44,150 nt of DNA. It comes from a virus (Duplodnaviria > Heunggongvirae > Uroviricota > Caudoviricetes). The translations under genes were made by a program, and so were the position numbers. Below are positions 2,070-44,150 of the stretch, one piece after another. Position 1 is the first letter of the stretch. Each line of letters opens with the position of its first letter. Location: IMG/VR virus record IMGVR_UViG_3300045988_004957; one strand, given 5' to 3'. Under the pieces are notes generated by a model. It did no database searches. It saw only the letters and a list, made by a program, of their open reading frames with translations, and was not told the DNA's origin.

Positions 2070-2350
2070 CTAAAGAGGGCCGCATCCAGAAATACGCAAA
2101 AGAGCGATTTGAGGCCCTTGGGGGCCTCGTTCGTAAACTTTCCTACGAGGGGCGTTCCGGCGCTCCCGACCTGCTGGTAATTCTCCCCGGCGGCATCGTC
2201 TGGTTCGTCGAGGTGAAGAAAGACGAAAGCACGAAGCCTGACCCGCACCAGTTACGAGAGCACGAGCGGATGCGTAAGCGTGGTGCAAATGTTTTTGTAG
2301 TTGGTTCGTTCAAACAGGTTGACACCCTAATAGCGAACTATTATAGTTAG
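2066..2350 (+). CDS. VRR-NUC domain nuclease
   Basis: 95 codons from ATG 2066; LLVILPGG..VWFVEVKKDE..Q..E resembles a VRR-NUC / PD-(D/E)XK core; ORF-track start 1886 probably too far upstream. Confidence 0.65.
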   Translation: MTKEGRIQKYAKERFEALGGLVRKLSYEGRSGAPDLLVILPGGIVWFVEVKKDESTKPDPHQLREHERMRKRGANVFVVGSFKQVDTLIANYYS

Positions 2351-4670: not shown

Positions 4671-6653
4671 AGCCAACGACATTCGGGAGTTAGCGAAAGC
4701 TAAAGCCTGAGCCTGCGTCGTAAACTCAGCGATGAAGAAGTCACTAAATCTGATAACAGCACCTGAACCTCCCCCAGTAGAGACGTACAGACCTACAGTA
4801 CCGTTAGCGGAAGCTTTACCCACCCCAAATGTGCTAATCCACTCACCAGACTTAGTATAAACGCTACCCATAGTAATACCTAACGTTATACTCACATCTG
4901 CTGTTCCTGATTGGAGGCGAGAGTTGACGCCCCACACGTACCATCTACCGGATGTAAGTGTCGTTCTTGACGCTACCATTTCATATAAACCGGACCCAGG
5001 GAATGAAAATTCGGTACATGTAGCGGCGTGAAGTCCGTCAGATACAGTCGAACCGTTAACGGTACCGCTACCAGAAAAATTATGGCTACCTGAGTCAAAT
5101 GTGATAGCTTTTAACTTATTCCCCGTCGGCGTATTAAACACTCGTCCCCTTGTTAAATTTCCTCGTAGAGACAAGTTTGTAGTGGCTATCGTTGCGGATT
5201 GCGACGCGACAGACTCTACAATAACGTCCTTTCCAGAGCTGCCGTTTAAATACACGTCGTGGGCTACGATGGTGCTTTGTGCATCCACTACAATATCCTG
5301 ATTACCATAGGCGTTGTCAAAACGGCAACCATAAGTTACTAAGTTGGAGTTGGATAGCTCGATGTTATTGAGATAAGAATACTCAGCAAAGAATATCGCG
5401 GTGTCTACCAACTTGAGAACTCGCGGTTTTTGCGCCACGCCGTCTACCTGAACAGCCGATGATGTTGCAATAGCTTCCATCCATACATTGGATACCCCGC
5501 ATGGAGATGTAGGACAGTCACCCGATTTGCTTTTTAAATATATCCCGCCGCCTCCGGAAGCCTCAATAATGGAGTCTTTAAGCCACCATCCGCCTATCCC
5601 GCCGTTATCGACAGTGCCGTTTAGGTAGACGGCATAGGTGGAGATGCCGTCGAAGTGGATATTGTAGAGGGTATCGGCCCCGCAATGCATCTCTGAGCCA
5701 CTAATCGCGTAATACCCCCAATCACACGTAGATACCCCAATATTTCTCCATGTATTACCGATGTTCCCGGAAGGCTTCTGAATGGCCTTGTTGATGTTGT
5801 GGATGTATAAATCACTAAAATTATGACGTCCGGAATATTTGTCTGACGGGTCAAAACTAATACCTGCGGCCCCAGTTGTACCTGTACCATCTACGGCAAA
5901 ACCACCGCTGTGTCGAAACTGCCAGTGCGGGGTGGATAAATTAACCTGTACAGTATTTGCATAGTTTGCCGATGGTTTTAATATTGCAGCACCACCTACA
6001 CCTTTTATCTGCTTACTACCCAGAGTGATTGCTTCTGTATACTCACCCGGAGAAACAATTAAGTCGTTTTTAGTTAACGACGCATCTACCGCGGCTTGAA
6101 GGGTAGAAAAGTCGCCAGAATGCTTAATATCATTGTTACGTGCAAGCAAACTCCTTTCGCCACTGCCTATGTTCTTGGCACCTTCCGCGTCAGATAATGT
6201 TTCAACGGTGTTACCGTTGGAAAAAGACACCAGTGAAGCCCCTAAACCGGCGGTACTTGACGCCAAATCATTACGCAAATTTTGGTCTGTCTGCGGCTTC
6301 CAGTTAGCGTTACCGACTGGATTAAAACTCGCGGGAACAACAACCGGCAACGTACCCGCATATGAGTACCACGTCTTGCTTACGGGGTCATACACCACTT
6401 TGTCGCGGTCATTAACTGTTAACGTACCGCCGGTGGAAAAGTCCCACGATACGGGAGAAAAACCGGCATCACGCAACACAGCAGGAAGCGTCTTCTGGGT
6501 CTGCCCGGTAACAGGGTTGGTCGCGTAATCAATATCGGCGCCACCAGCAACCCCGCCGGATTTACCGGTGATAACCTCGGCTTCAAAAATTTGGTGTTTC
6601 TTGACGGTTTGTAAATCCGCCAGGCTTAAAACGTCACCGCATCCGCTTGACAT
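4668..6653 (-). CDS. tailspike with pectate-lyase-like beta-helix
   Basis: 661 aa, Gly/Asn/Ser-rich repetitive segments typical of right-handed beta-helix depolymerases; last gene of tail module. Confidence 0.65.
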   Translation of the reverse strand: MSSGCGDVLSLADLQTVKKHQIFEAEVITGKSGGVAGGADIDYATNPVTGQTQKTLPAVLRDAGFSPVSWDFSTGGTLTVNDRDKVVYDPVSKTWYSYAGTLPVVVPASFNPVGNANWKPQTDQNLRNDLASSTAGLGASLVSFSNGNTVETLSDAEGAKNIGSGERSLLARNNDIKHSGDFSTLQAAVDASLTKNDLIVSPGEYTEAITLGSKQIKGVGGAAILKPSANYANTVQVNLSTPHWQFRHSGGFAVDGTGTTGAAGISFDPSDKYSGRHNFSDLYIHNINKAIQKPSGNIGNTWRNIGVSTCDWGYYAISGSEMHCGADTLYNIHFDGISTYAVYLNGTVDNGGIGGWWLKDSIIEASGGGGIYLKSKSGDCPTSPCGVSNVWMEAIATSSAVQVDGVAQKPRVLKLVDTAIFFAEYSYLNNIELSNSNLVTYGCRFDNAYGNQDIVVDAQSTIVAHDVYLNGSSGKDVIVESVASQSATIATTNLSLRGNLTRGRVFNTPTGNKLKAITFDSGSHNFSGSGTVNGSTVSDGLHAATCTEFSFPGSGLYEMVASRTTLTSGRWYVWGVNSRLQSGTADVSITLGITMGSVYTKSGEWISTFGVGKASANGTVGLYVSTGGGSGAVIRFSDFFIAEFTTQAQALAFANSRMSLA

Positions 6654-14615: not shown

Positions 14616-14722
14616 TCTTTAATCCTTTGGTTAAGAGGTTACGGGTTAAGGTTAATGCGCCAGACGGGAACCACCCGCTTTTCGTGTGCGACACTAGGCG
14701 CAAAATTATTCTATCACATTAC

Positions 14723-14751
14723 TTGCACACCCCAATATAATAGTGTACTAT
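14723..14751 (+). promoter_or_regulatory. sigma70-like promoter with embedded dyad (site 1)
   Basis: TTGCAC-17 bp-TACTAT; dyad AATAGT-GT-ACTATT at 14739..14752; 40 bp upstream of ATG 14793. Confidence 0.55.
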
Positions 14752-14792
14752 TCACTTACACCAACGATGTTATCCCAAACAGGAGCTACACC

Positions 14793-14984
14793 ATGACGGG
14801 TATTACTATGTTCTTCTTAATCATTATCGTTTTAGTTTATTTTATTCCATTTCTCGTGGCGCATATGCGCGACCATAAAGCGAAATTAGCGATATTCATG
14901 GCTAATCTGTTTCTTGGATGGGTTCTGCTGCCGTGGGTATTTATTTTAATCTGGGCTTGCAACTCGAATGTCAAAGAGAAGTGA
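14793..14984 (+). CDS. superinfection-immunity-like small membrane protein
   Basis: 63 aa, two TM helices, FIPFLVAHMRDH ... NLFLGWVLLPW pattern recalls Imm-type proteins; SD AGGAG 7 nt upstream. Confidence 0.5.
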   Translation: MTGITMFFLIIIVLVYFIPFLVAHMRDHKAKLAIFMANLFLGWVLLPWVFILIWACNSNVKEK

Positions 14985-15021
14985 GCTAGTATAGGACAAA
15001 TCCTAAGCACTAGGAATAAAC

Positions 15022-16152
15022 ATGGCCCGGAAGAAAATAACCGACGAACAGTTGCAGGAAGAATTGAACGCCGGTATGAAGAATGTAGATATCGCCCGTA
15101 AATACGGCATCTCAGACCGCGTAATTCGTATCCGTAAAGCGAAGCTGGCTAAGAAAGGCGTGGGCCACGGGCGCGACGTTAGCCACCTTGTGCCAGACGG
15201 CTACAAGATTAAAGGAACGTCGTCACTTGTGGACGAGTTCGGCAACACTAAGTTGCAATGGGTTAAGACTGATACCGACGCCGAACGTCAGGTTGAATTG
15301 ATGAAAGCCGTAATAGAGGGCATGAAGTCAGAGATTACGCCCGTTGCGCCTGTTAAAGCGGCGCGCGCCAAACGTGACGACAAGCTACTCAATCTTTACA
15401 CTGTATCTGATTTCCATCTCGGTATGCTGGCATGGGCCGATGAGAGCGGCGACGACTGGGACATGAAGATTGCAGAAGACCTGTTCTCTCGGTGGTTCGA
15501 CGCGGCGTTTCAGAAAGCACCGGATGCAGGAACAGGAGTTATTAACCTGCTTGGGGACTTCGCACACTTCGATAGTCTTGATGCCGTTACCCCGGAGTCG
15601 CGCCATGTATTAGATGCGGATACTCGCTATCAGAAACTGGTACGTTACATGATTCGTATGGTCCGCCGTGTTGTTGATATGGCGCTGGTTAAGCATCACA
15701 CAGTAAAACTTTTAATCGTTCAAGGTAACCACGACCCTGTTGGCTCCGTATGGCTTGCCGAAATGTTCACGGTTTTATACTCAAACGACAGCCGAGTGAT
15801 TGTTGATACGTCGCCGGATGTTTACAAGATGGTGCAACACGGCAAAACGACGCTGTTCTTCCATCACGGGCATAAAGCACGATTCGACGCTATCGAACCG
15901 GTTATGATTGCCAAGTTCCGTAAAGCGTTCGGCGAGAGTGTTTACAGCTACGCCCACGTAGGCCATCTGCACCACCAGAAGATTGTAGAAAGCCGTAACA
16001 TGATTATTGAGCAACACCGCACCTTAGCGGCTAAAGACGCCTACGCCTCTCGCGGCGGATGGATGTCGGGCCGCAGTGCAAATGTAATTACTTATAGCGC
16101 CGAATATGGCGAGGTCGCACGTTTAACTATTTCACCGGAGATGCTGGGATGA
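15022..16152 (+). CDS. metallophosphoesterase with N-terminal HTH-like region
   Basis: Calcineurin-like motifs DxH (SDFHLG), GDxxD (GDFAHFD), GNHD (QGNHDP), HHGH, GHLHH; basic HTH-like N-terminus. Confidence 0.7.
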   Translation: MARKKITDEQLQEELNAGMKNVDIARKYGISDRVIRIRKAKLAKKGVGHGRDVSHLVPDGYKIKGTSSLVDEFGNTKLQWVKTDTDAERQVELMKAVIEGMKSEITPVAPVKAARAKRDDKLLNLYTVSDFHLGMLAWADESGDDWDMKIAEDLFSRWFDAAFQKAPDAGTGVINLLGDFAHFDSLDAVTPESRHVLDADTRYQKLVRYMIRMVRRVVDMALVKHHTVKLLIVQGNHDPVGSVWLAEMFTVLYSNDSRVIVDTSPDVYKMVQHGKTTLFFHHGHKARFDAIEPVMIAKFRKAFGESVYSYAHVGHLHHQKIVESRNMIIEQHRTLAAKDAYASRGGWMSGRSANVITYSAEYGEVARLTISPEMLG

Positions 16153-16637
16153 AAGATATTGTAATTTTCGATTTAGACGGGACATTGGCCGACGGTACCC
16201 ATCGCTTACACCTGTTACCAAAAGATAACTACGGAGAAACGTGGGCGTGGAAGCCATTTAACATGGCCTGCAAAGATGACGCTCCGATATACGACAATAT
16301 CCATTTGTGTAGCGTACTGTGGCATTCCGGACTTACTATAATTATCCTTACCGGGCGAAGTGATGACGCTGAGGAGGAGACTCGCGAATGGTTACGAGAG
16401 AATAACGTTAGGTTTGACACGCTAATCATGCGCAGCAAACACGACAACAGAAAAGACATCGTAATTAAAGAAGAGGTGTTGCGTGCTTTCGGACTGGAAA
16501 GAATCTTGTGTGCGTTCGACGACTCTCCAGCGGTAATAAAGCATTTCCGTGACCTCGGCATAACCGCACACGCAGTTACCGAATACGACTGTAACGGGAA
16601 CTCTACACACTTAAAACCACACGGGAGCGATAAATAA
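16149..16637 (+). CDS. HAD-superfamily phosphatase
   Basis: N-terminal DxDGT motif (FDLDGTLADGT) and downstream Asp-rich motif; ATGA overlap with upstream gene. Confidence 0.65.
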   Translation: MKDIVIFDLDGTLADGTHRLHLLPKDNYGETWAWKPFNMACKDDAPIYDNIHLCSVLWHSGLTIIILTGRSDDAEEETREWLRENNVRFDTLIMRSKHDNRKDIVIKEEVLRAFGLERILCAFDDSPAVIKHFRDLGITAHAVTEYDCNGNSTHLKPHGSDK

Positions 16638-17191
16638 TGGCTAAGGTAATTATTCTTAATGGCCCCGCGGGTTGCGGGAAAGACACGCTTGCTATGGCGC
16701 TGGTAGAAATGGGCTTTGCGAAAGGAACTACCAGTTTCAAGAATCCAATGTTCAATATTGCTTTGGCAGCGTTAGGCCAGGATGCTTACCACGAATTTCT
16801 CGACGGCTACGACGACCGGGCGCGGAAAGAAAAACCCGAGGGTTTTCTTAATGGGTTGTCCCGCCGCCAGTTAATGATTGCCATTTCTGAGCAATTCATT
16901 AAACCGGTATTCGGCGATGATTATTTCGGTAAGTATCTTGCTGAAAACTTGCCTGACGGCGACGAAGTTTTTGTAGTGTCCGACGGTGGATTCGCCAGTG
17001 AAGTTGCCCCTATCGTCGCCGCGGGGCATGACGTGCGAATCGTCCGCCTCCATCGTGACGGCTATACGTTCATCGGCGATAGCCGTGGCTATCTGTACGA
17101 TGTTAGTGGTGTAAAAGATTACGACACCTACATCATACCGGGTGACGTTAAATCGAACGTTATAGACATTGCTTTAAAATTAGGTTTGTAA
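16637..17191 (+). CDS. P-loop kinase (dNMP-kinase-like)
   Basis: Walker A with GKDT variant (NGPAGCGKDTLA); 184 aa; last gene before terminator. Confidence 0.6.
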   Translation: MAKVIILNGPAGCGKDTLAMALVEMGFAKGTTSFKNPMFNIALAALGQDAYHEFLDGYDDRARKEKPEGFLNGLSRRQLMIAISEQFIKPVFGDDYFGKYLAENLPDGDEVFVVSDGGFASEVAPIVAAGHDVRIVRLHRDGYTFIGDSRGYLYDVSGVKDYDTYIIPGDVKSNVIDIALKLGL

Positions 17192-23723: not shown

Positions 23724-23955
23724 GGGTAATCACCTCTGATTTCGTCTTGCCTTCGTTGTCGGCGGCGGCGGCCTTTGATTCGTCCTGCTGCTGCCGTTGT
23801 GTTTTCTTCGCTAACTCAGCCTGCGCTTTCTGCTGTTGCTGCGAAACGAGATTCGCCCGGCCTTCGCTCCAGCCGCTGCGATACTGGTAAATGCCGTGGG
23901 CGTAAGCCAGGATGATGAAACATGCTCCCGCTACGACAGTTGCTTTAAGATTCAT
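23569..23955 (-). CDS. i-spanin (Rz-like)
   Basis: N-terminal TM helix followed by charged Gln/Ala/Lys-rich periplasmic domain; overlaps o-spanin. Confidence 0.7.
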   Translation of the reverse strand: MNLKATVVAGACFIILAYAHGIYQYRSGWSEGRANLVSQQQQKAQAELAKKTQRQQQDESKAAAADNEGKTKSEVITREVVKYIKTPGRSVCTFDPERVQLKSHAVANANSITGYDDDAASVQTGSAK

Positions 23956-23979
23956 GTTTCCCCTTTCTCGATAAGTAAA

Positions 23980-23999
23980 GCCCTGCCTTAAAGCAGGGC
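23980..23999 (-). terminator. GC hairpin with T-rich tail on minus strand
   Basis: GCCCTGC-6 nt-GCAGGGC, followed on minus strand by TTTACTTAT. Confidence 0.45.
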
Positions 24000-24065
24000 G
24001 CTAGTCCTTATCATTTAAACATAGAAACGGCGTAATCTAAGTAAACCTGTTACTTTTTACACAAG

Positions 24066-24208
24066 CAATAGAGTATGGCCCTTCCGAACGCGTCAGCGTA
24101 ACTACACTCAGGACTTACGTCCCGCTCCGTTACCTGCCCGCGCCGCGGTCGCTTGTTCATACTTCACAAGCTCAGGTGGAGCTTATCATATTTTTAGTGA
24201 AAAGTCAA
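24066..24208. repeat. dispersed ~145-bp non-coding repeat, copy A
   Basis: Aligns with 36397..36539 over about 143 bp incl. identical 43-bp block 24143..24185. Confidence 0.9.
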
Positions 24209-24274
24209 CTATTCGAATAGTTTATTCCAACATTTACAATTCGGTGGAATAACTGGAATACGTAAATAAATAGT

Positions 24275-24303
24275 TTGCACACCCCAATATAATAGGGTAC
24301 TAT
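24275..24303 (+). promoter_or_regulatory. sigma70-like promoter with embedded dyad (site 2)
   Basis: TTGCAC-17 bp-TACTAT, near-identical to site 1; dyad at 24291..24304. Confidence 0.55.
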
Positions 24304-24330
24304 TCAGTTAACTTAAACAGGAGGTGAAAA

Positions 24331-24534
24331 ATGTATGCAATTTGCGAAGTAGTTCAAGAGTTCGATGAAGAGTTCGACGGTGACTTGTGCCGTGTTAAAA
24401 AGGTTCTGCAGGTTTTCCCTGACGCAATGTCTGCTTACAGGGCATTAGATATATTTGAACCTGGAAGATACGGGGATTATGACACTGTTCTGAGGGTTGT
24501 CCATGAGCAGGATTTAAACACAAGATTCCGTTGA
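24331..24534 (+). CDS. hypothetical protein (moron-like, 67 aa)
   Basis: Lone plus-strand ORF with SD AGGAGGTGA, own promoter and terminator inside minus-strand structural module. Confidence 0.55.
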   Translation: MYAICEVVQEFDEEFDGDLCRVKKVLQVFPDAMSAYRALDIFEPGRYGDYDTVLRVVHEQDLNTRFR

Positions 24535-28903: not shown

Positions 28904-29402
28904 CGGACACCACCTTAATTGTTACTTCGCTGATTGGCTCGTCGCGTACTTCTTCGGCGACAACTGTTTTATTCAGGCCCAGTTTCGCGGCAGCAAACGT
29001 AGCAGAGATGCCCGCGGCCCCCGTTTCAGTGAAGTATGCCTCTTCCAGCGCCTGTGCTGTCTCCCAGGCTTCTGCAAATGCGGGAATCTCACGCAGCCAA
29101 AGCTTAATAATCGGGATAGTGACTCCGATGTGTAAGGCGAAGCGGGCCAGTGACGGTGGTTTATCCTGAATCAGCGGGCGTTCGTCACCCTTAGACGTAG
29201 GCACAAGCTCCCACGACGTGCGGTCGAAGAACTCGATTAGTGCATCGCAATAGCCCGGGTCCCACAACGCGGCGGAATTACGGGATGATTGATAAAGGCT
29301 CTGTTTACCGCGCGGTCGTTTACGGCGACGGTTTGCGCTAACAGCTTCTTTATGCGCAGCTTGCACCACCTCTGGTGATGGTTGCTTAAGTGTAAGTTTC
29401 AT
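28893..29402 (-). CDS. putative terminase small subunit
   Basis: ORF overlapping terminase large start; start taken at ATG 29402 with SD AGGGGG; basic N-terminal region. Confidence 0.45.
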   Translation of the reverse strand: MKLTLKQPSPEVVQAAHKEAVSANRRRKRPRGKQSLYQSSRNSAALWDPGYCDALIEFFDRTSWELVPTSKGDERPLIQDKPPSLARFALHIGVTIPIIKLWLREIPAFAEAWETAQALEEAYFTETGAAGISATFAAAKLGLNKTVVAEEVRDEPISEVTIKVVSGER

Positions 29403-31615: not shown

Positions 31616-31644
31616 AATATAATAGGGTCGAGGATAATAGTCAA
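31616..31644 (-). promoter_or_regulatory. sigma70-like promoter for small-gene cluster
   Basis: Minus strand TTGACT-17 bp-TATATT immediately downstream of the lysis-cassette terminator. Confidence 0.5.
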
Positions 31645-31674
31645 CTAGTCATCACAGAAAATAGATAAAAAAAA

Positions 31675-31762: not shown

Positions 31763-32248
31763 TCAACCTTTCACCGCGCGCCCGATAGCCTCTGCCTCTT
31801 GCCACGGTTTACCGTCGAACAGTGCCAGACGTCCGGCGGTACGGCGACGCAGGCCTAGTAACGGTTTGCCGTTCTGGTTGATGAACAGCGCCAGCTTAGC
31901 CCGCAGCGTTGCAATATCACCAGAACGCAGTGCCTTACCCGTGCCGGTAGTAGCTGCAATCACACCAGCACCTGCGTTGTATACCAGGTCGCACACTGCA
32001 TCGAACTGTGCCTGTGTCAATGAATGGTGTGCTGCTGCGTCAACCGCAGCTACGGCCTTAGCCATATCGCGATTCAGTAGCAGTAGACCTTGTCCCGGCG
32101 TGATTGTTTGCCCCGCCTTAACGTCCGGCCCGTAGTGACCGTACCCGATAGTCAGGTACTTCTCATTTGGCGTAGCACGATACGCAGTTCCGCGGAATCC
32201 CTCGAACGCGGCGGTGAATTTGATGCCATTGTTGCTAATGTTTCTCAT
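31763..32248 (-). CDS. endolysin (GH24 T4-lysozyme-like)
   Basis: N-terminal catalytic region FEGFRGTAYRATPNEKYLTIGYG with Glu-Asp-Thr spacing; no signal-anchor. Confidence 0.8.
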   Translation of the reverse strand: MRNISNNGIKFTAAFEGFRGTAYRATPNEKYLTIGYGHYGPDVKAGQTITPGQGLLLLNRDMAKAVAAVDAAAHHSLTQAQFDAVCDLVYNAGAGVIAATTGTGKALRSGDIATLRAKLALFINQNGKPLLGLRRRTAGRLALFDGKPWQEAEAIGRAVKG

Positions 32249-32778
32249 AAAGCACCTTCCCGTAATTTATGGTTCGCGAAAACCCCGTGTATCTTCTCTC
32301 TAGCTTCTTCGGCAACTAGCGCGGCTAGTTCTAGGTCCGCAAAGTATCCGTAAAAATACTTAATCTTATGTATTTTTAATTGAACGTACCATCCTCCTTG
32401 TTGCTTCTGCCACATAACGTTCTTAATACCGGATTTGCTGTCCTTTCTTGGCCCTTTGTTGCATCCGTTTTCGGATTTGTTGGCTTCACGTAAATTACAG
32501 AATCTATTATCACGACCATCGCCGTTTATGTGGTCTATTAGGGAGTTGGGCCATTCCCCTGTCATGTATAGCCAAGCGAGACGATGCGCCAAGTACCGCT
32601 TCCCACCGAAGGCTATGGAGCGATAGCCTGCACAATGGTTGGCGCCAGCCTCACTTCCCGCCCGAGCATTGTGCACACGTGTAGCTTTCCATGTAAAAAC
32701 TCCGGTATCGGGGTCGTAGTGTAAAACCTCGCGCAGCTTATCTGCGGTAAGTCCATTATCTGAAATGTTTCGAGACAC
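32245..32778 (-). CDS. HNH endonuclease
   Basis: HNH core LIDHINGDGRDNRFCNLREA..N; start taken at GTG 32778 with SD GGAGGA; ATGA coupling to endolysin. Confidence 0.75.
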   Translation of the reverse strand: MSRNISDNGLTADKLREVLHYDPDTGVFTWKATRVHNARAGSEAGANHCAGYRSIAFGGKRYLAHRLAWLYMTGEWPNSLIDHINGDGRDNRFCNLREANKSENGCNKGPRKDSKSGIKNVMWQKQQGGWYVQLKIHKIKYFYGYFADLELAALVAEEAREKIHGVFANHKLREGAL

Positions 32779-33028
32779 GCTTATGTCCTCCGTACGACAG
32801 CCACGCCTGACGAATCTGGCGCAGCGCAACTAAAGTGATTAATGTTTCCGGCAGCGTCGGTGACATGCTGCCTTGTAACAGGTGGATACAACCTGCGGCG
32901 CAGACAATAGCAGTGAGGATATACAGCACACGACCAAACAGACCGTCGTCTACGCTGGGGTGGTATACGTTAAACAGCGATGTGCCCCCGATTGCGAGCA
33001 TACCGCAAAACCAGAATAACTCATTCAT
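32756..33028 (-). CDS. two-TM membrane protein (holin-associated)
   Basis: ATG 33028 overlapping holin stop; two hydrophobic helices. Confidence 0.45.
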   Translation of the reverse strand: MNELFWFCGMLAIGGTSLFNVYHPSVDDGLFGRVLYILTAIVCAAGCIHLLQGSMSPTLPETLITLVALRQIRQAWLSYGGHKRVSKHFR

Positions 33029-35088: not shown

Positions 35089-35118
35089 CTCTGCCTCTCC
35101 TCTCGTTTGTGTAAATGA

Positions 35119-35147
35119 ATAGTAGACTATTCTATCCCAGTGTGCAA
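35119..35147 (-). promoter_or_regulatory. sigma70-like promoter with embedded dyad (site 3)
   Basis: Minus strand TTGCAC-17 bp-TACTAT; perfect dyad AATAGT-AG-ACTATT at 35118..35131. Confidence 0.5.
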
Positions 35148-35948: not shown

Positions 35949-36167
35949 TTATTTAAAGTAGATAGCAAATTTCTTGTAACCCGCTGGCTCGTTACGAAGT
36001 CCTTTACCGTTAGCGAAACGTTGTACGTTAACAAAATCATTTTCATCCATTCCGTCGGTGTCGAACGTAAAGAAGTTGCGCTTGTTCCCGATAATTACGC
36101 GCTCTGAGATATCGATGCCGTAAACTTCTTTGATTGCGGAAACTACGCTTGCGGTCGCTTTGTTCAT
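35949..36167 (-). CDS. hypothetical protein
   Basis: 72 aa, first gene after promoter site 4; SD AAGGAA. Confidence 0.45.
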   Translation of the reverse strand: MNKATASVVSAIKEVYGIDISERVIIGNKRNFFTFDTDGMDENDFVNVQRFANGKGLRNEPAGYKKFAIYFK

Positions 36168-36201
36168 TTCTAAATTCCTTATGTCTCGTTCCGATAAGTG
36201 A

Positions 36202-36230
36202 ATAGTATCCTATTATGTTGGGGTGTGCAA
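36202..36230 (-). promoter_or_regulatory. sigma70-like promoter with embedded dyad (site 4)
   Basis: Minus strand TTGCACACCCCAACATAATAGGATACTAT; dyad at 36201..36214. Confidence 0.55.
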
Positions 36231-36396
36231 GATAATAGTTACGTTGCCGTTGTGATTCTTTTGTTTCTTTAAAGAGTACGCAACGCAGCGGGTGGGCTAA
36301 AGCCCACCCCAGCGGAGTGAAGTACTCTCTACCTTGCTTACGGCAACTATAGAAACTTTTAATTATTAGTGACTTGGGTTATTTAGACGGGATTTA

Positions 36397-36539
36397 CAAT
36401 AGATTATGGCCCTTCCGAATGCAGGCAGCGACACTACACTCAGTGCTGACGCACCGCTCCGTTTCCTGCCGCACCGCGGTCGCTTGTTCATACTTCACAA
36501 GCTCAGGTGGAGCTTAGCACATTTCTTAGTAAAAGTCAA
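36397..36539. repeat. dispersed ~145-bp non-coding repeat, copy B
   Basis: Paralogue of 24066..24208; identical 43-bp block at 36474..36516. Confidence 0.9.
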
Positions 36540-36646
36540 TACCATTAGCATCTTTTGTATATTAGTAACTTTGTGTGGTGTTTTGGTTGCTTTTACATTC
36601 ACGCTATCCTATACTCGTTTTCACCAAACAAACAGGAGATATAAAA

Positions 36647-36829
36647 ATGCAGCATTACATGACACAGAATGAAGTGGCTGAACGTATCGGGGTGACACGT
36701 CAAACAATTAATAACTGGTTGCGCAGCGGTAAATTCCCTGATTGCTGTATTAAGGTTATGGGTCGCCGTTTACCAGGAACATTTGACCGTAATAAAGTTG
36801 AAGCATGGATTAAGGAGAACGTGAAATGA
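36647..36829 (+). CDS. AlpA/excisionase-like HTH DNA-binding protein
   Basis: 60 aa from ATG 36647 (SD CAGGAG); GKFP ... W pattern of AlpA-type HTH proteins. Confidence 0.55.
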   Translation: MQHYMTQNEVAERIGVTRQTINNWLRSGKFPDCCIKVMGRRLPGTFDRNKVEAWIKENVK

Positions 36830-37038
36830 TTGGGCGTATGGGTTGTTACTTTGAAAACTGTAAAGTTAAATACTGGTTTAAGTTTGCGTCGGAAATTACT
36901 GACAGCGGATTCTATGCGGAAATATGTAAGCCTAATCATTTGTTGGAACCGACACGCATTATTAAGATGCCAATCGAGGCTTTAAGTAAGTGTCGTTTCT
37001 ACGCTTCGGAGCGTGCGTGGATTGCGGGCGTTAAGTAA
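36826..37038 (+). CDS. hypothetical protein
   Basis: 70 aa, ATGA coupling to upstream gene. Confidence 0.45.
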   Translation: MIGRMGCYFENCKVKYWFKFASEITDSGFYAEICKPNHLLEPTRIIKMPIEALSKCRFYASERAWIAGVK

Positions 37039-37106
37039 AAGAAACCCCAACGCCAGAACGTCGGGGCTAAAGTACAAATCATCAAAGTAAGCATAAGGAT
37101 TATACA

Positions 37107-37235
37107 ATGACAAAGTTAATAGTTCCACAGCTACGCCGCCAGAAACACGGCGCTGACTTCTTCGCACCGGTAAAGATGAACCGCGCAATGCGCCGTATGC
37201 AGGAAGCCTTAGAACGTGCGGAGAAAAAGAAATGA
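37107..37235 (+). CDS. hypothetical protein (42 aa)
   Basis: ATG 37107 with SD AAGGA; basic; stop overlaps next start. Confidence 0.35.
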   Translation: MTKLIVPQLRRQKHGADFFAPVKMNRAMRRMQEALERAEKKK

Positions 37236-39484
37236 ATATTGTTTTTGCAACGCTGCGCAACACATTCGATAAAAACCCTGTAGCGCGTGAGATGCCGCTC
37301 GAGCAGTTTGTGGAGTATGTCTGCGATACATCGAAGCGTTTATCCGTGGATCCGTCGTGGTCTAAGGAAGAGTACGACGCTGCCAAGATTAAGCAGAAAG
37401 CTATTGCGCCTGTTGGGGGTCGCCGTAAAAACGCTATCCTGGAAGACAGTGTGGTTAAGTTCGATTTTGACCATCTCAACCGTACTCAGTACCGCGACCT
37501 TACCCGCAAATTCAAGAACGCACCGTTCTTCAATATTCTGCATACAACGGCATCGCATCAGCATGTGTGTAAAAACGGTGATTACGCCTTCCGCGTTCTG
37601 GTTCCGGCTCGCACGCCGTTTAACTCTAACGACGCGTGGATGGTCCAACGGGCTATTTGTGCAGAGTTAGAAATAGATGAAGCCTTGCGTGACCACTGCA
37701 CGGAAGACGGCAACCGCCTTATCTATCTGCCACATAGAGAGTCAAAGATAACGGTTACAGAAGGGCGTGTTATCCGTGCCGAGCGGTACATCAAGAAAGC
37801 CGAAGAGATGGGGTTGAGTAAACGTGAAGTTAAGACACTTGCCGCCGATGAGTATGGGCTTAACGCTGATATAGCGCATTTCTGCGAAGCCGAGCTTGGC
37901 CTTGACGCTTTATCTTCCGGGCGCGGGTACGAAGTCCCATGCCCTAACGAACATCTGCATACAGGCAAAGGCTCCACAAGCATCATGCTTGATGGTAAAG
38001 AAGTGCGCTTTGTGTGCCAGCATACAAACAACGGCGCTTGCACCGAGCTTAACCGCCGACAGCATTTGGCCCTGCGTATGTGCGGCCTGCCAGACGAGCT
38101 TAACGTAGACAAGCAACCTATCAGTATTAACAGCATTCGTGCGGCTCTGCCTGATTTACCGGATGAAGAGATTGAAGAACTGCACCGCACAGAGAACGAG
38201 GAGCCTGTAACTTGCACGCTGGAAGACCTTGAAGAAGAGGACGAGTTACCAGAACCGGTAAAGGCTGATTTCGTCGTTGAGGGGTACATGCCGTCGGATT
38301 GTATCTGGGATATTGTCGGGGAATCCGGCACGTACAAATCATTCTATACGCTGGGGATGATGTACCTGAGCGCCGCCGGGTACCGGTTTGCGGGGGCTGA
38401 CACCCAACGTTGCCACCATTTCTATATTGACGGCGAGGGTGGTGCAGCTACACGAACACGTATTGATGCACTCGCGGCTAAATATGGCGAGGAAGGTAAA
38501 GATTATGTACATGTCATCGATATGGGCGAAATACTCGCTACGCATGGTGATAAAAAAATTCCAGCTCTAATCCACAGGATGCGCGAAACCGCAGGGGATG
38601 AACCTATTGGCATGGTTGCCTTCGACACCCTTAACCAGACGCTGGCCCTGACGATTGATAAGTTCGACGAGAACAGTTCATCAACAGCAATCGGCATGGG
38701 TAAAGTTATCGCCATCCTGAAAGAAGTACGCGATGCAACTAAAGCCGCAGTAGGCGTTGTCCACCATACGCCGAAGGGTGGAAAGAAAGCACGCGGCAGT
38801 GGGGCGCTGTATGCGGGTGTTGACGTGGAACTGACAATCGAACGTGCAACCGACCGTCAGATAAACGTATATCACTCGAAATTCAAGCACGGTCCGCAAC
38901 AGAAGACGGTTGGCATGGTACTGGAGTCTGTACAGTTCCGTGAAGCACCGCCGCCGAAAGAGTACCGCGCGGTTGAGTTCCTCGGTAGCACAGAGGAATA
39001 CGGCACAATAGTAAACCTCGACCTGCCTGAGCCGCACAAGGCGCTTGTATTGATGCCGTGGGGCTTCGAGCCATTCAAGACCGACGAGGAGAAAGAGAGG
39101 GAAGAAGGGTTAACTAACGAAGGTAAACAAAATGTACGTAAAACCATAGAGAACGCCGTCAACAGTTCCGAGGCCACGATACTCGCGGCGTTTGAACTGG
39201 CGGAGGGGACCTACAACGGCAACGAGGGCATCACGGTATCCGCAGCGAATAAGCTCGCGCAGTCTGACCCCAACGCAAAGGCGTTTAACTCCAAAGAAGC
39301 CATAGAACGCGGGAAGATTAAGAAAATGGTTGAGGCTGGGTATCTTGTTCCGGGTACTGACGAAAACAATCAGATAATCCCAGGCCGTTACAGACTGAAC
39401 ACCATGATAACAGATAACAAGATTCCGAAGACAATATACGAACCGAATGAAATGCTGACAGTGACCGAGGAGGATTTGGAATGA
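37232..39484 (+). CDS. DNA primase / helicase
   Basis: 750 aa: Cys/His cluster CPNEHLH...C, Walker A-like GESGTYKS and Walker B VAFD in a RecA-like C-terminal half. Confidence 0.65.
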   Translation: MNIVFATLRNTFDKNPVAREMPLEQFVEYVCDTSKRLSVDPSWSKEEYDAAKIKQKAIAPVGGRRKNAILEDSVVKFDFDHLNRTQYRDLTRKFKNAPFFNILHTTASHQHVCKNGDYAFRVLVPARTPFNSNDAWMVQRAICAELEIDEALRDHCTEDGNRLIYLPHRESKITVTEGRVIRAERYIKKAEEMGLSKREVKTLAADEYGLNADIAHFCEAELGLDALSSGRGYEVPCPNEHLHTGKGSTSIMLDGKEVRFVCQHTNNGACTELNRRQHLALRMCGLPDELNVDKQPISINSIRAALPDLPDEEIEELHRTENEEPVTCTLEDLEEEDELPEPVKADFVVEGYMPSDCIWDIVGESGTYKSFYTLGMMYLSAAGYRFAGADTQRCHHFYIDGEGGAATRTRIDALAAKYGEEGKDYVHVIDMGEILATHGDKKIPALIHRMRETAGDEPIGMVAFDTLNQTLALTIDKFDENSSSTAIGMGKVIAILKEVRDATKAAVGVVHHTPKGGKKARGSGALYAGVDVELTIERATDRQINVYHSKFKHGPQQKTVGMVLESVQFREAPPPKEYRAVEFLGSTEEYGTIVNLDLPEPHKALVLMPWGFEPFKTDEEKEREEGLTNEGKQNVRKTIENAVNSSEATILAAFELAEGTYNGNEGITVSAANKLAQSDPNAKAFNSKEAIERGKIKKMVEAGYLVPGTDENNQIIPGRYRLNTMITDNKIPKTIYEPNEMLTVTEEDLE

Positions 39485-39795
39485 ATATTTACGATTTTAT
39501 AGATAACCCGTTTAAAGCAGTGAAGGCAGGATACCGCCCGTCATACCTGACATGTGTTTCCGCTGTAAGCAACAACTGGTGGACTTTTTGTGTGTATGCA
39601 GCGGGGATTTTTGCGGAGTTTAAAGACATTTTAGACATGACGCTGGCAGAGATTATAAAGTGCCTTTTCAAATTAATTATATCGATAACTATTGTTATAA
39701 GTTTTCCTGTAAGTGCGTGGTTTCTCGCCTGGATTCAGTACCTGAACGTGCAACACACTATTAAGAATTTGGAAGAACTCGATAAGTTGCTATAA
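39481..39795 (+). CDS. hypothetical membrane protein
   Basis: ATGA coupling with primase-helicase; two hydrophobic helices. Confidence 0.45.
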   Translation: MNIYDFIDNPFKAVKAGYRPSYLTCVSAVSNNWWTFCVYAAGIFAEFKDILDMTLAEIIKCLFKLIISITIVISFPVSAWFLAWIQYLNVQHTIKNLEELDKLL

Positions 39796-39800
39796 AAAGA

Positions 39801-39820
39801 AAGGGGCTTTAAGCCCCTTC
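39801..39820. terminator. bidirectional hairpin terminator
   Basis: AAGGGGCTT-T-AAGCCCCTT between convergent genes; overlaps 3' end of XRE gene. Confidence 0.6.
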
Positions 39821-40024
39821 ACCTAACGCCAGCCACTTGGCGTCTACTTCCAGAACTTCCGCCAGTTTGAACAGCGTTGCCGGGCGGACGTCCTGAGTTA
39901 CTCCAAGTGCCAGTTGGTTAATCGCGCCCTGGGAAACGCCGGTCAGGGCCGCCAAACGGCGCTGGGAGATGCCGAGTTCTTTACGGCGTTGTTCTACACG
40001 GATACCTAGTTCAGATGGTTGCAT
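39809..40024 (-). CDS. XRE-family HTH transcriptional regulator
   Basis: HTH signature LGISQRRLAALTGVSQGAINQLALG; SD AAGGAG; divergent from replication operon. Confidence 0.7.
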   Translation of the reverse strand: MQPSELGIRVEQRRKELGISQRRLAALTGVSQGAINQLALGVTQDVRPATLFKLAEVLEVDAKWLALGEGA

Positions 40025-40044
40025 GTCAATTACTCCTTAGTCAG

Positions 40045-40117
40045 TTGATATGTGAATAGTACCATATTAATTATTTTAGAAAAGCCCATTGACATGTGAA
40101 TAGTTCGCTATTATAGT
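40045..40117 (+). promoter_or_regulatory. two tandem promoters with dyad operators (sites 5 and 6)
   Basis: TTGATA-17 bp-TAATTA (weak -10) and TTGACA-17 bp-TATAGT; dyads at 40055..40068 and 40099..40112. Confidence 0.55.
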
Positions 40118-40145
40118 TAGCCCATACCAAACGAGAGGGGCGGAT

Positions 40146-40373
40146 ATGAACACAATAACGGGAGCCATAGCTAAAGGTTTTCTAGCAATTTTCGGAGAAT
40201 CGCAGGAAGTGTGCACAAAACATAAATTTGTACTTTCTTGCGTAGTCGGGGACGAGTTTGATGGGTTCGATAAACTTGTTGTCTGCGACCATTGCGGGCA
40301 AGAAGCTATTCAACACCCAAACGGTAAATTTGAATTAATAGACGATAGCCTTACAGAAGGCGACGGCGAGTAA
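40146..40373 (+). CDS. hypothetical protein (CxxC-containing)
   Basis: 75 aa, first gene after switch promoters; CDHCG motif; SD GAGAGGGG. Confidence 0.45.
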   Translation: MNTITGAIAKGFLAIFGESQEVCTKHKFVLSCVVGDEFDGFDKLVVCDHCGQEAIQHPNGKFELIDDSLTEGDGE

Positions 40374-40397
40374 CCCAAATAAACAGGAGAATAAATA

Positions 40398-40916
40398 ATG
40401 TTAGAGAAATTCTTAGTATTACTGGAACGTTTCGTAGTTGCGCATGAACTGATTGCTGCGAACAGTGCACGCCGTACTGAACTGCCGAAGGCTATCACGG
40501 CGCCATATGGTAAAGACGTCGACAGTGGTGTCGCAGAAACTGCAACAATCACGCCTACTGTTGTAAAAGAAGAAACAAAAGAAATCCCGGTCGAGGGTGA
40601 AGACGTAGTTGACACTAAACCGGCAGAAGAAGAGAAGCCGAAACGCAAGCCGCGTAAAGCTAAAGTAGAGGAACCTGCGCCAGAACCGGAAGAAGAGAAA
40701 GAAGAAGTCGATTACAAGTCTCTGCGTGACCAGATTCAGGCCATCGACGATGCAATTAATGAAGGTCCTAGCGATGCCGCGTGCGATGATTCTGATGAAC
40801 TGCTGGAAGAGTTCACAGGTAAGAAGATGAAGATTGCCGCGATTAAAGACGAAGACCTGGTTGAGTACCTGGAACGCCTGACAGCAATCAAGAACAAGTA
40901 TTTCGAAGAAGAATAA
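40398..40916 (+). CDS. acidic hypothetical protein
   Basis: 172 aa with Glu/Asp-rich C-terminal half and a basic KPKRKPRKAK patch; strong SD. Confidence 0.5.
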   Translation: MLEKFLVLLERFVVAHELIAANSARRTELPKAITAPYGKDVDSGVAETATITPTVVKEETKEIPVEGEDVVDTKPAEEEKPKRKPRKAKVEEPAPEPEEEKEEVDYKSLRDQIQAIDDAINEGPSDAACDDSDELLEEFTGKKMKIAAIKDEDLVEYLERLTAIKNKYFEEE

Positions 40917-40923
40917 CTATCTC

Positions 40924-40942
40924 GCGGCCTTCGGGCCGCTTT
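40924..40942 (+). terminator. intra-operon hairpin attenuator
   Basis: GCGGCC-TTCG-GGCCGC followed by TTTAACT. Confidence 0.45.
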
Positions 40943-40959
40943 AACTGAGGGTCGGAATT

Positions 40960-41232
40960 ATGATTTACCAACTCTACCGAGCCGTCGACAGGCGGGATAA
41001 CACAGAGGCGCTATGGCTATTGCGTGCTCCGTCCGGTGCGCACCAGATGGAAGAGATGGCGTACTTAGGAAAAGTACCACGGCCTAAAGATATAGGCCGT
41101 CACGTGTCACAGATTAAGCGCACAACTTTCGCCAAGCCTGACTTTTATGTCTTCGAGTCTATGTATGGGTGGGCCATGCACTGCGACCATAAGACACGAC
41201 ATTTAATTGACCAGTGGGAGAACAGGGTATGA
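40960..41232 (+). CDS. hypothetical protein
   Basis: 90 aa ORF, SD GAGGG. Confidence 0.45.
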   Translation: MIYQLYRAVDRRDNTEALWLLRAPSGAHQMEEMAYLGKVPRPKDIGRHVSQIKRTTFAKPDFYVFESMYGWAMHCDHKTRHLIDQWENRV

Positions 41233-41486
41233 ATTGGGTTAGCGTAAACGAAGCACTACCAGAGTCAAAAGATGATTCTGTTTTAGTTTGCTCAGTAGAC
41301 GGAAGTAAATGCGACGATAATGGGTTCCCGGAAGGCGGAATTGATTTTGTGCATATACAGGACTATTTCGACGACATTACTGCTGGGCTGGATGAAAACG
41401 GAAATCAGTTATATACGAAACGGTATATCGAGATGGGTATAACACACTGGATGTATTTACCAGAACTACCGGAGGAGGCTAAATAA
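41229..41486 (+). CDS. DUF551-like protein
   Basis: C-terminal ITHWMYLPELP motif; start taken at ATG 41229 (ATGA coupling). Confidence 0.45.
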   Translation: MNWVSVNEALPESKDDSVLVCSVDGSKCDDNGFPEGGIDFVHIQDYFDDITAGLDENGNQLYTKRYIEMGITHWMYLPELPEEAK

Positions 41487-42727
41487 TGATTCTAAAAGAA
41501 CGAGGCGGCAATAATGATGTACACGCCTTACTGTCGCCGTCAGGCGCTAAAAAGTGGCTGAGTTGTGCCGCATCGTTGGCCTGTGAAAAAGATATTCCTA
41601 ATACGTCGGGTAAAGCCGCGGTATTAGGCACAGCAATGCACACCATAGCAGAGATGCACCTTAACCAGTACATCAAAGGCACTGCGTTGCCGTTAGAGCG
41701 TGAAGTTGGAGCTTACGTGCTGGATGAAGGCAAAGGCCAGATTAAGGCACTAATCAGTCCGATGAAAGGCGCGGTACTGATTACGGCTGACATGATTGAG
41801 CAGGTGCGTAAGTACACCGACTACTGCAAAGCGCTTATCGACGTAGCGACTTACGCCAAGCTGGAAATGCGTGTCAATCTTACTGAGGTATTGCATCCGG
41901 GGTATGAAGGCGTTGAGACGTTCGGAACCGCTGACCTCGTTGCTGTCCAGGAACTGGCAAACACCGACGAGCACATGCTCATTATCGGCGACCTGAAAAC
42001 CGGGCGGCATCGCGTCGAAGCGAAAGAAAACAAGCAGCTTATGCTTTACGCTCTCGGTGTTTATCGCCGACTCAAGAGACGTTATAACATAACAGTTGTT
42101 CGTCTGGTAATCTTCCAGCCGTACACTGGCGGCGCGTCGGAGTGGGACATCTCGGTTGAAGGTATGGAGCTGTTCGCTAAGTTCGCACAGAAACGCGCAC
42201 TGTTAGCGCTTGATGCTTATCACCGTGGCAAGAAGAACCTGAAAGCGTCAGACTTCAAGCCGTCGGTTGATGGTTGTCAGTGGTGCCGGTTCTCTGAACA
42301 GTGCGTCGCGCGTACAAAGACGGTTAACTCTGTGCTGGCGGAAGAACTGGAGGACGACTTTGCCCTGGAACTTACGCCGGAGCAACTCGTAGCTGAGTAT
42401 GAGAAGTTGCCGTTGTTGCGCCAGCACATCGACAAGGTTGAGAAAGCGATGGCTGCCGCGTTGCATTCCGGTAAGAAAGTGCCGGGGTACAAGCTGGTTG
42501 AAGGCCGCCCGGGTAATCGTGCGTGGAAAGATGCAGAGAAAGTGGCTGGCAAGTATGGCATAGCGCTAATGAAGCAAGTGCTCATGACGCCAACCGAAGC
42601 GGTTAAAGTTGTGCCTGAAGATGAACTGAAAGACTTCATTACACGTAAGCCAGGCGCACCATGTGTCGCAACGGCAGATGACAAACGTCCTGAGTGGAAT
42701 CAGGTTACAGAGGAGGATTTAGAATGA
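41486..42727 (+). CDS. PD-(D/E)XK nuclease, Cas4/RecB-like
   Basis: Core D ... IGDLKTG ... QLMLYALG plus C-terminal Cys cluster CQWCRFSEQC typical of Cas4-like Fe-S exonucleases. Confidence 0.55.
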   Translation: MILKERGGNNDVHALLSPSGAKKWLSCAASLACEKDIPNTSGKAAVLGTAMHTIAEMHLNQYIKGTALPLEREVGAYVLDEGKGQIKALISPMKGAVLITADMIEQVRKYTDYCKALIDVATYAKLEMRVNLTEVLHPGYEGVETFGTADLVAVQELANTDEHMLIIGDLKTGRHRVEAKENKQLMLYALGVYRRLKRRYNITVVRLVIFQPYTGGASEWDISVEGMELFAKFAQKRALLALDAYHRGKKNLKASDFKPSVDGCQWCRFSEQCVARTKTVNSVLAEELEDDFALELTPEQLVAEYEKLPLLRQHIDKVEKAMAAALHSGKKVPGYKLVEGRPGNRAWKDAEKVAGKYGIALMKQVLMTPTEAVKVVPEDELKDFITRKPGAPCVATADDKRPEWNQVTEEDLE

Positions 42728-42927
42728 TTCAAGTAAATGAAATGCCGACTGATAAAGATTTTTTGATGGTATGGCGCTGGGATGGGTATCTACACTCGGA
42801 ATCGTTCACGTTCTTGAACGGTACCATGATGCGATACGACCCTGTAGAGGATGAGTTCGAACCGGCCGATATGCTTAATTTCGAGAACATAATCCCTATT
42901 GCAAAATTTTATTTGACACCTGAATAG
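42724..42927 (+). CDS. hypothetical protein
   Basis: ATG 42724 overlapping nuclease stop (ATGA); 67 aa. Confidence 0.45.
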   Translation: MIQVNEMPTDKDFLMVWRWDGYLHSESFTFLNGTMMRYDPVEDEFEPADMLNFENIIPIAKFYLTPE

Positions 42928-42941
42928 TTAGCTATTATAGT
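42913..42941 (+). promoter_or_regulatory. sigma70-like promoter with embedded dyad (site 7)
   Basis: TTGACA-17 bp-TATAGT; dyad 42923..42936 in spacer; overlaps 3' end of upstream ORF. Confidence 0.55.
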
Positions 42942-43687: not shown

Positions 43688-44150
43688 ATGAGTTACCTGT
43701 TCTTAGACTTTGAAACATTCTCAGAAGCCGATTTGAAGAAAGTCGGTTCTTACGCTTACGCCGAACACCCGTCAACCGAAGTGCTTATCTGTACATATGC
43801 TTTTGACGACGAACCTGTGCGGGTATGGGATTGCACCGACGGCAGCGACATGCCGGGGGATTTACACCGCGCACTGCGCCGCCTTGTTAAGCCCAACAGC
43901 CGCATCAAGATGGTGTGGCACAACGGTGGACTTTTCGATCGCCTAATCATGAAACACTGCTGGGACTTTGATATTCCGGTAAGTAACACCATTGATACTA
44001 TGATTTGGGCGTTCCGTCACGCGCTGCCGGGTTCTCTTGATGCGCTGTGCGAAGTGCTGGGCGTGTCTGCAGACAACGCGAAAGATAAACGCGGCAAGGC
44101 TCTGATTAAGCGTTTCTCTAAACCGACGCCGAAGAACTACAAAATCCGCC
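43688..44150 (+). CDS. DNA polymerase family A, N-terminal 3'-5' exonuclease domain (3' end outside window)
   Basis: ATG 43688; Exo I-like motif LFLDFETFS; frame still open at window end. Confidence 0.8.
   Translation, partial: MSYLFLDFETFSEADLKKVGSYAYAEHPSTEVLICTYAFDDEPVRVWDCTDGSDMPGDLHRALRRLVKPNSRIKMVWHNGGLFDRLIMKHCWDFDIPVSNTIDTMIWAFRHALPGSLDALCEVLGVSADNAKDKRGKALIKRFSKPTPKNYKIR

Follow-up and report, generated by a model that had tools for sequence, protein, structure and literature searches.

Why should a phage with no apparent route to lysogeny carry what looks like the control region of a temperate one? The question is raised by positions 40025–40145 of the 44,150-nucleotide viral record IMGVR_UViG_3300045988_004957 (Caudoviricetes), the whole of which is called the window here. 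This 121-bp gap lies between a minus-strand gene for a small XRE-family regulator (39809–40024) and a rightward open reading frame (ORF) starting at 40146, boundaries on which we agree with a preliminary description of the DNA. That description saw in the gap a lambdoid-style divergent switch, and suggested that the regulator may time early-to-middle transcription in a virulent phage. The timing proposal is the best reading of the locus, and it is strengthened by the occurrence of the same 14-bp dyad on about ten other promoters around the genome; the system thus extends beyond the gap. The phage is a strictly lytic siphovirus, and the gene probably encodes a global repressor of Cro type, under autoregulation, that would turn down early and middle transcription.

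Within the gap, the two copies of a 25-nt direct repeat (40045–40069 and 40089–40113; 84% identity, 44-bp spacing) carry one 14-bp dyad each, as first described; one dyad is perfect, the other has a single mismatch, and their centres are exactly 44 bp apart. The local elements are:

39809–40024, minus strand: XRE/434-Cro-like repressor gene, an ORF of 71 amino acids with a single domain, Pfam HTH_3
40045–40074, plus strand: weak rightward promoter-like element, TTGATA-18-AATTAT, 9 of 12 consensus positions; the first 'tandem promoter' of the preliminary description
40055–40068, no strand: operator A, AATAGTACCATATT (AATAG-TACC-ATATT), 9 of 10 half-site positions, one mismatch
40056–40064, minus strand: candidate XRE promoter read from the sequence, extended −10 TGgTACTAT, overlapping operator A
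40073–40100, minus strand: alternative candidate XRE promoter, TTCACA-16-TAAAAT, 10 of 12, its −35 overlapping operator B
40089–40117, plus strand: class I rightward promoter, TTGACA-17-TATAGT, 11 of 12, its spacer filled by operator B
40099–40112, no strand: operator B, AATAGTTCGCTATT (AATAG-TTCG-CTATT), a perfect 5+5 dyad in the spacer of the rightward promoter

The repeat copies had been taken for two tandem rightward promoters, which is half convincing: the right one is near-consensus, but the left one scores just 9 of 12, having a −35 without the class I −10, TATAGT. More likely, operator A serves the repressor's own leftward promoter and not a second rightward one. On the minus strand operator A reads AATATGGTACTATT, which contains the extended −10 TGgTACTAT; this aligns with the TACTATTCA −10 block of four class II promoters of the window (listed below), and its TG exists because of the single mismatch of operator A. 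The TGn is retained in both variants of operator A found in relatives (TGATACTAT and TGCTACTAT), and the homologous element of Salmonella phage Jersey, TTGCGT-17-TACTAT, is directed at the Jersey repressor gene. The hexamers of the alternative promoter at 40073–40100 are less conserved among relatives. A further candidate operator, the 9-nt inverted repeat 40022–40030/40088–40096, was rejected; the presence of TTGACATG both at the −35 of the rightward promoter and over the XRE start codon explains the repeat.

Perfect AATAG-N4-CTATT dyads occur seven times in the window against 0.05 expected, an enrichment of about 140-fold, and 11 sites are found when one mismatch is allowed (0.9 expected); none of 100 shuffles matched either count. 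Nine of these 11 sites overlap promoter-like elements, in intergenic DNA ahead of non-structural operons. The promoters fall mainly into two layouts. Class I comprises the only three 11-of-12 matches to the sigma-70 consensus in the 44-kb window, all of which have a dyad in the spacer: TTGACA is followed by 4 nt and the dyad, and TATAGT begins at the dyad's last base. Class II promoters, TTGCAC-17-TACTAT, run in the opposite direction relative to the motif and have the dyad over the −10, which arises because the first two central bases of the dyad are 'TA' in all class II sites. Besides the rightward promoter of the gap, the dyad-bearing promoters are:

2319–2347, plus strand: class I promoter of the helicase/HNH operon, perfect dyad 2329–2342; Jersey homologue 29238–29266
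42913–42941, plus strand: class I promoter of the SSB/DNA polymerase operon, perfect dyad 42923–42936; homologous promoter and dyad in Jersey (32925–32953) and Otaku
14723–14752, plus strand: class II promoter of the Imm-like/phosphoesterase/PNKP operon, perfect dyad 14739–14752 over the −10; divergent from the tail operon
24275–24304, plus strand: class II promoter before the small gene 24331–24534, perfect dyad 24291–24304
36201–36230, minus strand: class II promoter of a leftward small-gene cluster (first gene 35949–36167), perfect dyad 36201–36214
35118–35147, minus strand: class II promoter of the next leftward cluster, perfect dyad 35118–35131; Jersey homologue 39893–39920
31616–31649, minus strand: promoter TTGACT-17-TATATT, 10 of 12, with the one-mismatch dyad ACTAG-TTGA-CTATT over the −35; same layout in Jersey (42338–42371)
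24180–24213, minus strand: possible promoter TTGACT-17-TGaTAAGCT, with the one-mismatch dyad AATAG-TTGA-CTTTT over the −35; uncertain

Among the four one-mismatch dyads about one is expected by chance, and the match at 26094 may be such a case. Since the dyad occurs in three registers—spacer, −10 and −35—it is a separate element laid over promoters and not part of one promoter template. Three of the class II promoters (cassettes 14723–14757, 24275–24309 and 36196–36230) are near-identical over about 40 nt, the spacer ACCCCAA included; this spacer is not conserved in Jersey, which suggests recent duplication, gene conversion or a second binding site.

The window is the genome, all but complete and circularly permuted, of an ordinary E. 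coli phage of the genus Kagunavirus (subfamily Guernseyvirinae). That it is nearly the whole genome had been supposed from the start, and this follows from the DNA polymerase gene, which is cut by the right end of the window and continues from base 1 (43688–44149 and 1–1713) with 2 codons missing at the junction. Gene order is that of Schulenburg, in keeping with Kagunavirus synteny; 39400–41000 is 99.8% identical to Escherichia phage vB_EcoM_SHAK7858 over 1.6 kb, and 466 phage records match this segment, almost all of them Kagunavirus or Jerseyvirus. Rfam and tRNA scans of the window gave no matches.

Conservation of the dyads was followed in 37 Kagunavirus-type contigs from IMG/VR. All 37 loci have a perfect dyad at −88 and a one-mismatch dyad at −44 from the repressor start, and the mismatch of operator A is itself kept in every one. 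Dyads at the SSB promoter and two leftward promoters are present in nearly every locus extending that far, and that at 36201–36214 in every related locus reaching its position. Through gene gain and loss (gene-content mosaicism), the distances between dyad sites differ by hundreds of bases among loci. The intergenic alignment comprised 38 distinct sequences, 36 of Kagunavirus type and two unalignable, unrelated outliers; among the 36, the 10 half-site bases of operator B are invariant, six versions of the central 4 bp occur, and the 4–5 nt from the −35 to the dyad vary freely, one indel included.

The dyad is also found outside Kagunavirus. In Jersey, TAATAG-N4-CTATTA is the commonest dyad (four perfect copies against 0.03 expected, plus one-mismatch copies) and stands at promoters homologous to those of the window, including four of the six annotated in the Jersey GenBank record. 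Jersey keeps it in promoters with differing flanks, and an imperfect copy adjoins the repressor gene. SE1, Otaku and VLCpiS11a are more distant members of the Guernseyvirinae. SE1, whose XRE protein is 40% identical to that of the window, has sites of the form [GT]ATTAG-N4-NTAWTA; the palindrome TATTA-N6-TAATA occurs twice in perfect form, against 0.05 expected, both times at a homologous divergent region. Otaku has one perfect dyad, in its SSB promoter, and AGTAG-AATA-C[TG]ATT variants elsewhere; in VLCpiS11a a search for the dyad found none that was recognisable.

The protein encoded beside the gap matches Pfam HTH_3 (PF01381), scoring 49.7 bits where the curated threshold is 23 (E = 3.9e-13, residues 11–65). 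Among solved structures, 434 Cro and the DNA-binding domain of the 434 repressor are closest to it (E about 1e-5; for 434 Cro 1zug, 8.5e-6 over residues 6–68). An AlphaFold model (pLDDT 81, mostly helical) was matched by Foldseek with probability 1.00 and TM scores of 0.6–0.7 to HipB, 434 Cro (2cro, 3cro), P22 c2, SinR and C-proteins; for so small a domain the E-values are weak (4e-3 or higher). Profile search and model gave no sign, within the 71 residues, of a C-terminal oligomerisation domain or an S24 peptidase/RecA-cleavable domain. The protein thus belongs to the XRE/434-Cro family; with its single domain it is of Cro type, not of CI type, and the genome encodes no other XRE-type repressor. 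In relatives the gene is labelled 'Cro', 'transcriptional repressor', 'DicA' or 'hypothetical'. Between Kagunavirus and Jersey the protein is 48% identical, which places it among the most divergent genes common to both genera (DNA polymerase, 95.6%; HTH_17, 82%; a 172-aa protein, 72%); the divergence is mostly in the C-terminal half, at 33% identity against 62% in residues 1–32. Its transcript ends at a terminator:

39800–39820, minus strand: intrinsic terminator of the XRE transcript, a 9-bp stem followed by a T-run

Because the transcript stops here, the gene is monocistronic. The same element stands at the end of the convergent helicase-primase operon, and in Schulenburg a terminator is annotated at the matching position.

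In the mechanism that we favour, host sigma-70 RNA polymerase would fire the consensus-like phage promoters on entry, and the repressor would be produced from its own short monocistronic unit. As it accumulated it would bind AATAG-N4-CTATT, presumably as a dimer, in the spacer of the three strongest promoters (those of the replication/recombination, SSB–polymerase and helicase operons), over the −10 of the four TTGCAC-17-TACTAT promoters and, at one or two further promoters, over the −35. Binding in any of these registers would exclude polymerase, so that early and middle non-structural transcription would fall genome-wide, and the replication, recombination, nucleotide/RNA-repair and small-gene operons would be turned down as infection proceeds. 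Because the repressor's own promoter has the sole conserved imperfect, and presumably weaker, operator, it would be closed last, which amounts to negative autoregulation. The promoters in this scheme are consensus predictions, and we infer binding by the XRE protein, repression and timing from sequence. The single Kagunavirus RNA-seq paper distinguishes three expression classes, which are too coarse for timing.

Which protein binds the dyad is a separate matter. Operators of the 434 Cro family are 14-bp dyads with unconstrained central bases. The XRE protein belongs to this family and two dyads flank its own gene, which makes it the obvious candidate, and it is probably the binder; the dyads have a geometry fit for a Cro-type dimer and are placed over predicted early promoters. 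In SE1 the motif has changed symmetrically at two homologous sites, which argues for a phage-encoded dimer and against a host factor. A host factor is also unlikely because Jersey and SE1 both infect Salmonella and yet differ in motif. Covariation between operator and recognition helix was tried as a test of XRE binding and gave no clean answer: the helix is divergent in Jersey with the dyad unchanged, SE1 has a variant altered symmetrically by one base pair, in two perfect copies only, Otaku mixes perfect and degenerate sites, and VLCpiS11a has none that is recognisable.

Several observations weigh against the XRE protein, most of them bringing in the other small helix-turn-helix protein of the phage:

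36647–36829, plus strand: HTH_17 protein, the rival candidate for binding the dyad, 60 amino acids; Pfam HTH_17, E = 4.9e-8; PHROG 66, 'excisionase and transcriptional regulator'

The predicted recognition helix of the XRE protein differs at four positions between Kagunavirus and Jersey (SQGAINQ against SQSLITH), in proteins of 48% identity, although the dyad is the same; HTH_17, at 80–84% identity between Kagunavirus and Jerseyvirus, fits an unchanged dyad better. The clean, perfect regulon is found only in the two genera that have HTH_17, and in SE1, Otaku and VLCpiS11a, where tblastn and phmmer --max find no HTH_17, the dyads are altered or degenerate. The altered dyads can be read in two ways: either each XRE protein has co-evolved with the sites of its phage, or the sites decayed once HTH_17 was lost. 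Lastly, the two contigs of Kagunavirus type in which the HTH_17 gene is missing (L011 and L021) were seen as 12-kb loci only. These points would be accounted for if the HTH_17 protein, or some other phage factor, bound the dyad and the XRE protein had a different target; genome-wide regulation would then fall to HTH_17, which might repress or might be loaded at promoters, for instance as an antiterminator of Q/AlpA type. The K1B4 RNA-seq paper places an HTH gene among four early genes, although the mapping of its gene numbers is a guess.

We regard this alternative, the main rival, as unlikely. In L011 and L021 the HTH_17 gene has been swapped for unrelated ORFs of 149 and 47 amino acids and every dyad is perfect; the SSB promoter of Otaku, a phage without HTH_17, also retains a perfect dyad. 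It is these two facts that tip the balance toward the XRE protein. No dyad lies directly beside the start of the HTH_17 gene, whereas two flank the XRE gene, and small proteins of the HTH_17/excisionase type do not typically bind 14-bp dyads as symmetric dimers. Searches of the HTH_17 protein against PDB sequences gave marginal matches only. As to the gene itself, its position upstream of the helicase-primase looks like a swappable cassette: the replacements lie at 3551–4209 in L011 and 8559–9144 in L021, the 47-aa ORF is Cys-rich, and the N-terminal half of the helicase-primase differs too.

It is also possible, though doubtful, that the XRE protein is a complete early-to-late switch, one bound dimer repressing early genes and activating late ones. 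Simultaneous repression and activation has precedents in lambda CI at OR2/PRM and in phi29 p4. In the divergent regions, the dyad that would block the class II early promoter is placed about 42–45 bp ahead of the predicted start of the late promoter on the other side, and the predicted late promoters have a poor −35 and an extended −10 (for the tail operon, TTGGGG-16-TGaTAGAAT at 14735–14708; the Jersey equivalent is TGtTATTCT). In the same speculative vein, operator B might stimulate the repressor's own promoter until operator A closes it.

The uncertain element at 24180–24213 points to the head/tail operon via a leader of about 190 nt. On the minus strand of 23956–24213, the leader that follows this element (24208–24180) ends in a GC-rich hairpin and TTTACTT (23999–23980), before the head/tail operon start at 23955; Rfam gave no match. 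The layout recalls lambda PR'-tR', and by analogy the late genes might need antitermination.

Returning to the repressor circuit, we considered whether the XRE protein could instead be a true immunity repressor, acting in a non-integrated carrier or pseudolysogenic state or silencing superinfecting relatives, so that the locus would be a degenerate lysogeny switch kept for dormancy. The protein is of the CI/Cro family, and its closest relatives outside the subfamily are in temperate phages (e.g., phiP27, Stx-converting phages, Mcat13). Operators on every strong early promoter could in principle silence the genome completely, and it retains three lambdoid relics: NinH, NinX/DUF551 and an endolysin like that of P22. 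The preliminary description's claim that lysogeny genes are absent stands in part. The ten largest ORFs of the window left unassigned include no integrase; they encode a phosphatase of PNKP type, one AAA_18 and one HNH protein, and otherwise proteins without a family. The full annotations of Schulenburg and Jersey list no integrase, recombinase, partition or telomere/protelomerase function. On the other hand, the HTH_17 protein carries an 'excisionase' label. Megablast of 36000–42800 (6.8 kb) against 5,426 complete Escherichia coli genomes, plasmids included, gave no match, and among 185,579 species genomes (one per species) no close XRE homologue was found, the best being 51% identical and in an unrelated context. 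The published reports found describe these phages as lytic. Because the XRE protein has no domain beyond its helix-turn-helix, and both lysogeny genes and prophage copies are missing from the places searched, a maintained dormant state is improbable.

The weakest alternative is that the dyads have no dedicated binding protein, being parts of duplicated promoter cassettes or a sequence that favours host RNA polymerase or a host factor: the near-identical class II cassette (TTGCACACCCCAAyATAATAG..TACTATTCA) and the close likeness of the class I promoters fit duplication or gene conversion, and some bases of the dyad also belong to a −10 (TACTAT, TATAGT), but we hold this to be very improbable given the three registers, the half-sites that stay invariant while the bases between and beside them drift, the persistence of the dyad in Jersey promoters with different flanks and, for a host factor, the differing motifs of Jersey and SE1. 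We know of no match to the dyad, in spacing or sequence, among the ArgR, Fur, TrpR, TyrR and Mar boxes.

The circuit that we propose resembles several known systems in part. Its protein is closest to 434 Cro, with which it shares a length of 71 amino acids, a single-domain HTH_3 fold and 39% identity in structural alignment; 14-bp dyads with a variable centre, placed over core promoters, are also common to both, and the role that we would expect, lowering early transcription in lytic growth with autoregulation, is that of 434 Cro and of lambda and P22 Cro. Unlike 434 and lambda Cro, it has no CI partner, no tripartite OR/OL and no lysogeny to govern; lambda Cro acts at two clusters, PL and PR, as against about ten dispersed operators here, and the 434 operator is ACAA-N6-TTGT rather than AATAG-N4-CTATT. 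With the lambdoid CI/Cro switch the locus shares a divergent promoter region, repeated operators beside an XRE-family gene, and an imperfect, presumably weaker, operator on the repressor's own promoter. The comparison drawn in the preliminary description therefore holds as far as a repressor/operator control region without lysogeny apparatus, and fails for the rest: there is one repressor, without an oligomerisation or cleavage domain, and two operators 44 bp apart in place of three adjacent ones spaced by about 23–24 bp. In place of paired cI and cro genes, the divergent genes are those for the Cys-rich protein of 75 amino acids and the acidic one of 172, neither of which has an HTH family match.

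Restriction-modification C proteins (C.AhdI, C.BclI, C.Esp1396I), which are among the best structural matches of the model, are small XRE-fold dimers that serve as timing devices on dyads of graded affinity at their own promoter, as we propose for the protein here. They act on one restriction-modification operon through two adjacent C-boxes, in contrast to the dispersed regulon here; the XRE gene is monocistronic and has no restriction-modification genes nearby. Dispersed sites for one repressor are known from mycobacteriophage L5, whose gp71 has tens of 'stoperator' sites. Those sites are asymmetric, orientation-dependent and mostly outside promoters, and they serve prophage silencing in a temperate phage. 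In phi29, a strictly lytic phage, the small DNA-binding protein p4 shuts early promoters; it has an unrelated fold and works at one promoter cluster, and it also activates the late promoter, a function that would be speculative here.

We found no published description of the shared dyad or regulon in a search that did not cover the 2015 'Jerseyvirinae' subfamily paper, so a prior mention is possible; the XRE gene and promoters are already annotated in public records of relatives. Among the phages put forward for therapy and biocontrol as 'safe, strictly lytic', those of Kagunavirus and Jerseyvirus are some of the most often isolated. Many of their deposited genomes label the gene 'repressor', 'Cro' or 'DicA', and papers ignore or deny it; several state 'no repressor' while listing a 'DicA' repressor gene. 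If the gene serves a lytic timing circuit with no lysogeny route, this recurrent annotation worry would be settled. The circuit would then be a compact, testable model, with one small repressor and one 14-bp site over about ten host-type promoters, and would show how transcription could be ordered in a virulent phage that encodes no RNA polymerase; its repressible promoters would form a ready set for engineering the small genomes of these phages. Such a regulon is unsurprising in principle; what it would offer is a clean circuit in a widely used phage group, now in the BASEL collection.

The rightward promoter of the gap serves the following genes:

40146–40373, plus strand: first gene of the rightward operon here, 75 amino acids with four Cys, no known family, phrog_32657 (unknown function)
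40398–42927, plus strand: conserved rightward operon, encoding the acidic 172-aa protein, a 90-aa protein, DUF551, a DUF2800/PD-(D/E)XK nuclease and a 77-aa protein

The four-Cys gene is accessory and present in a minority of relatives. The first position after the promoter is mosaic among them, being taken by the acidic 172-aa gene directly, as in most relatives, or by other small ORFs. Jersey has the 172-aa protein at 72% identity, Otaku at 41% and SE1 at 39%.

Under the dyad at 14739, the operon 14793–17191 (plus strand) encodes a superinfection protein resembling T4 Imm, a phosphoesterase of the calcineurin type, an HAD phosphatase of the PNKP type (E = 3.3e-20) and a kinase-like AAA_18 protein, and looks like an RNA/DNA end-repair set. 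The Imm ORF, annotated at 14655, probably starts at an ATG near 14793, where there is a good AGGAG. In the divergent region before the HTH_17/helicase-primase operon, 36290–36309 forms a perfect 9-bp hairpin, GGGTGGGCT-AA-AGCCCACCC, without a T-run. Long non-coding stretches of 360–585 bp replace the HTH_17 cluster in SE1 (L042, 3751–4111), Otaku (L058, 25988–26572) and a third genome (L059, 4743–5297); they are rich in short repeats, CTCCCCC or TTGCGA/TCGCAA, and may be an origin or iteron region. An HNH_3 endonuclease ORF (32245–32829, minus strand; E = 3.1e-14) lies directly upstream of the endolysin gene (31763–32248, minus strand) and is probably a homing endonuclease insertion. Lastly, an unrelated viral contig (L039) with a distant XRE homologue (38% identity) has three repeats containing ATATCTGT around a TTGACA at 5866–5925, just upstream of the gene; judged by its sequence, this is an independent example of an XRE gene with repeated sites, with a different operator.

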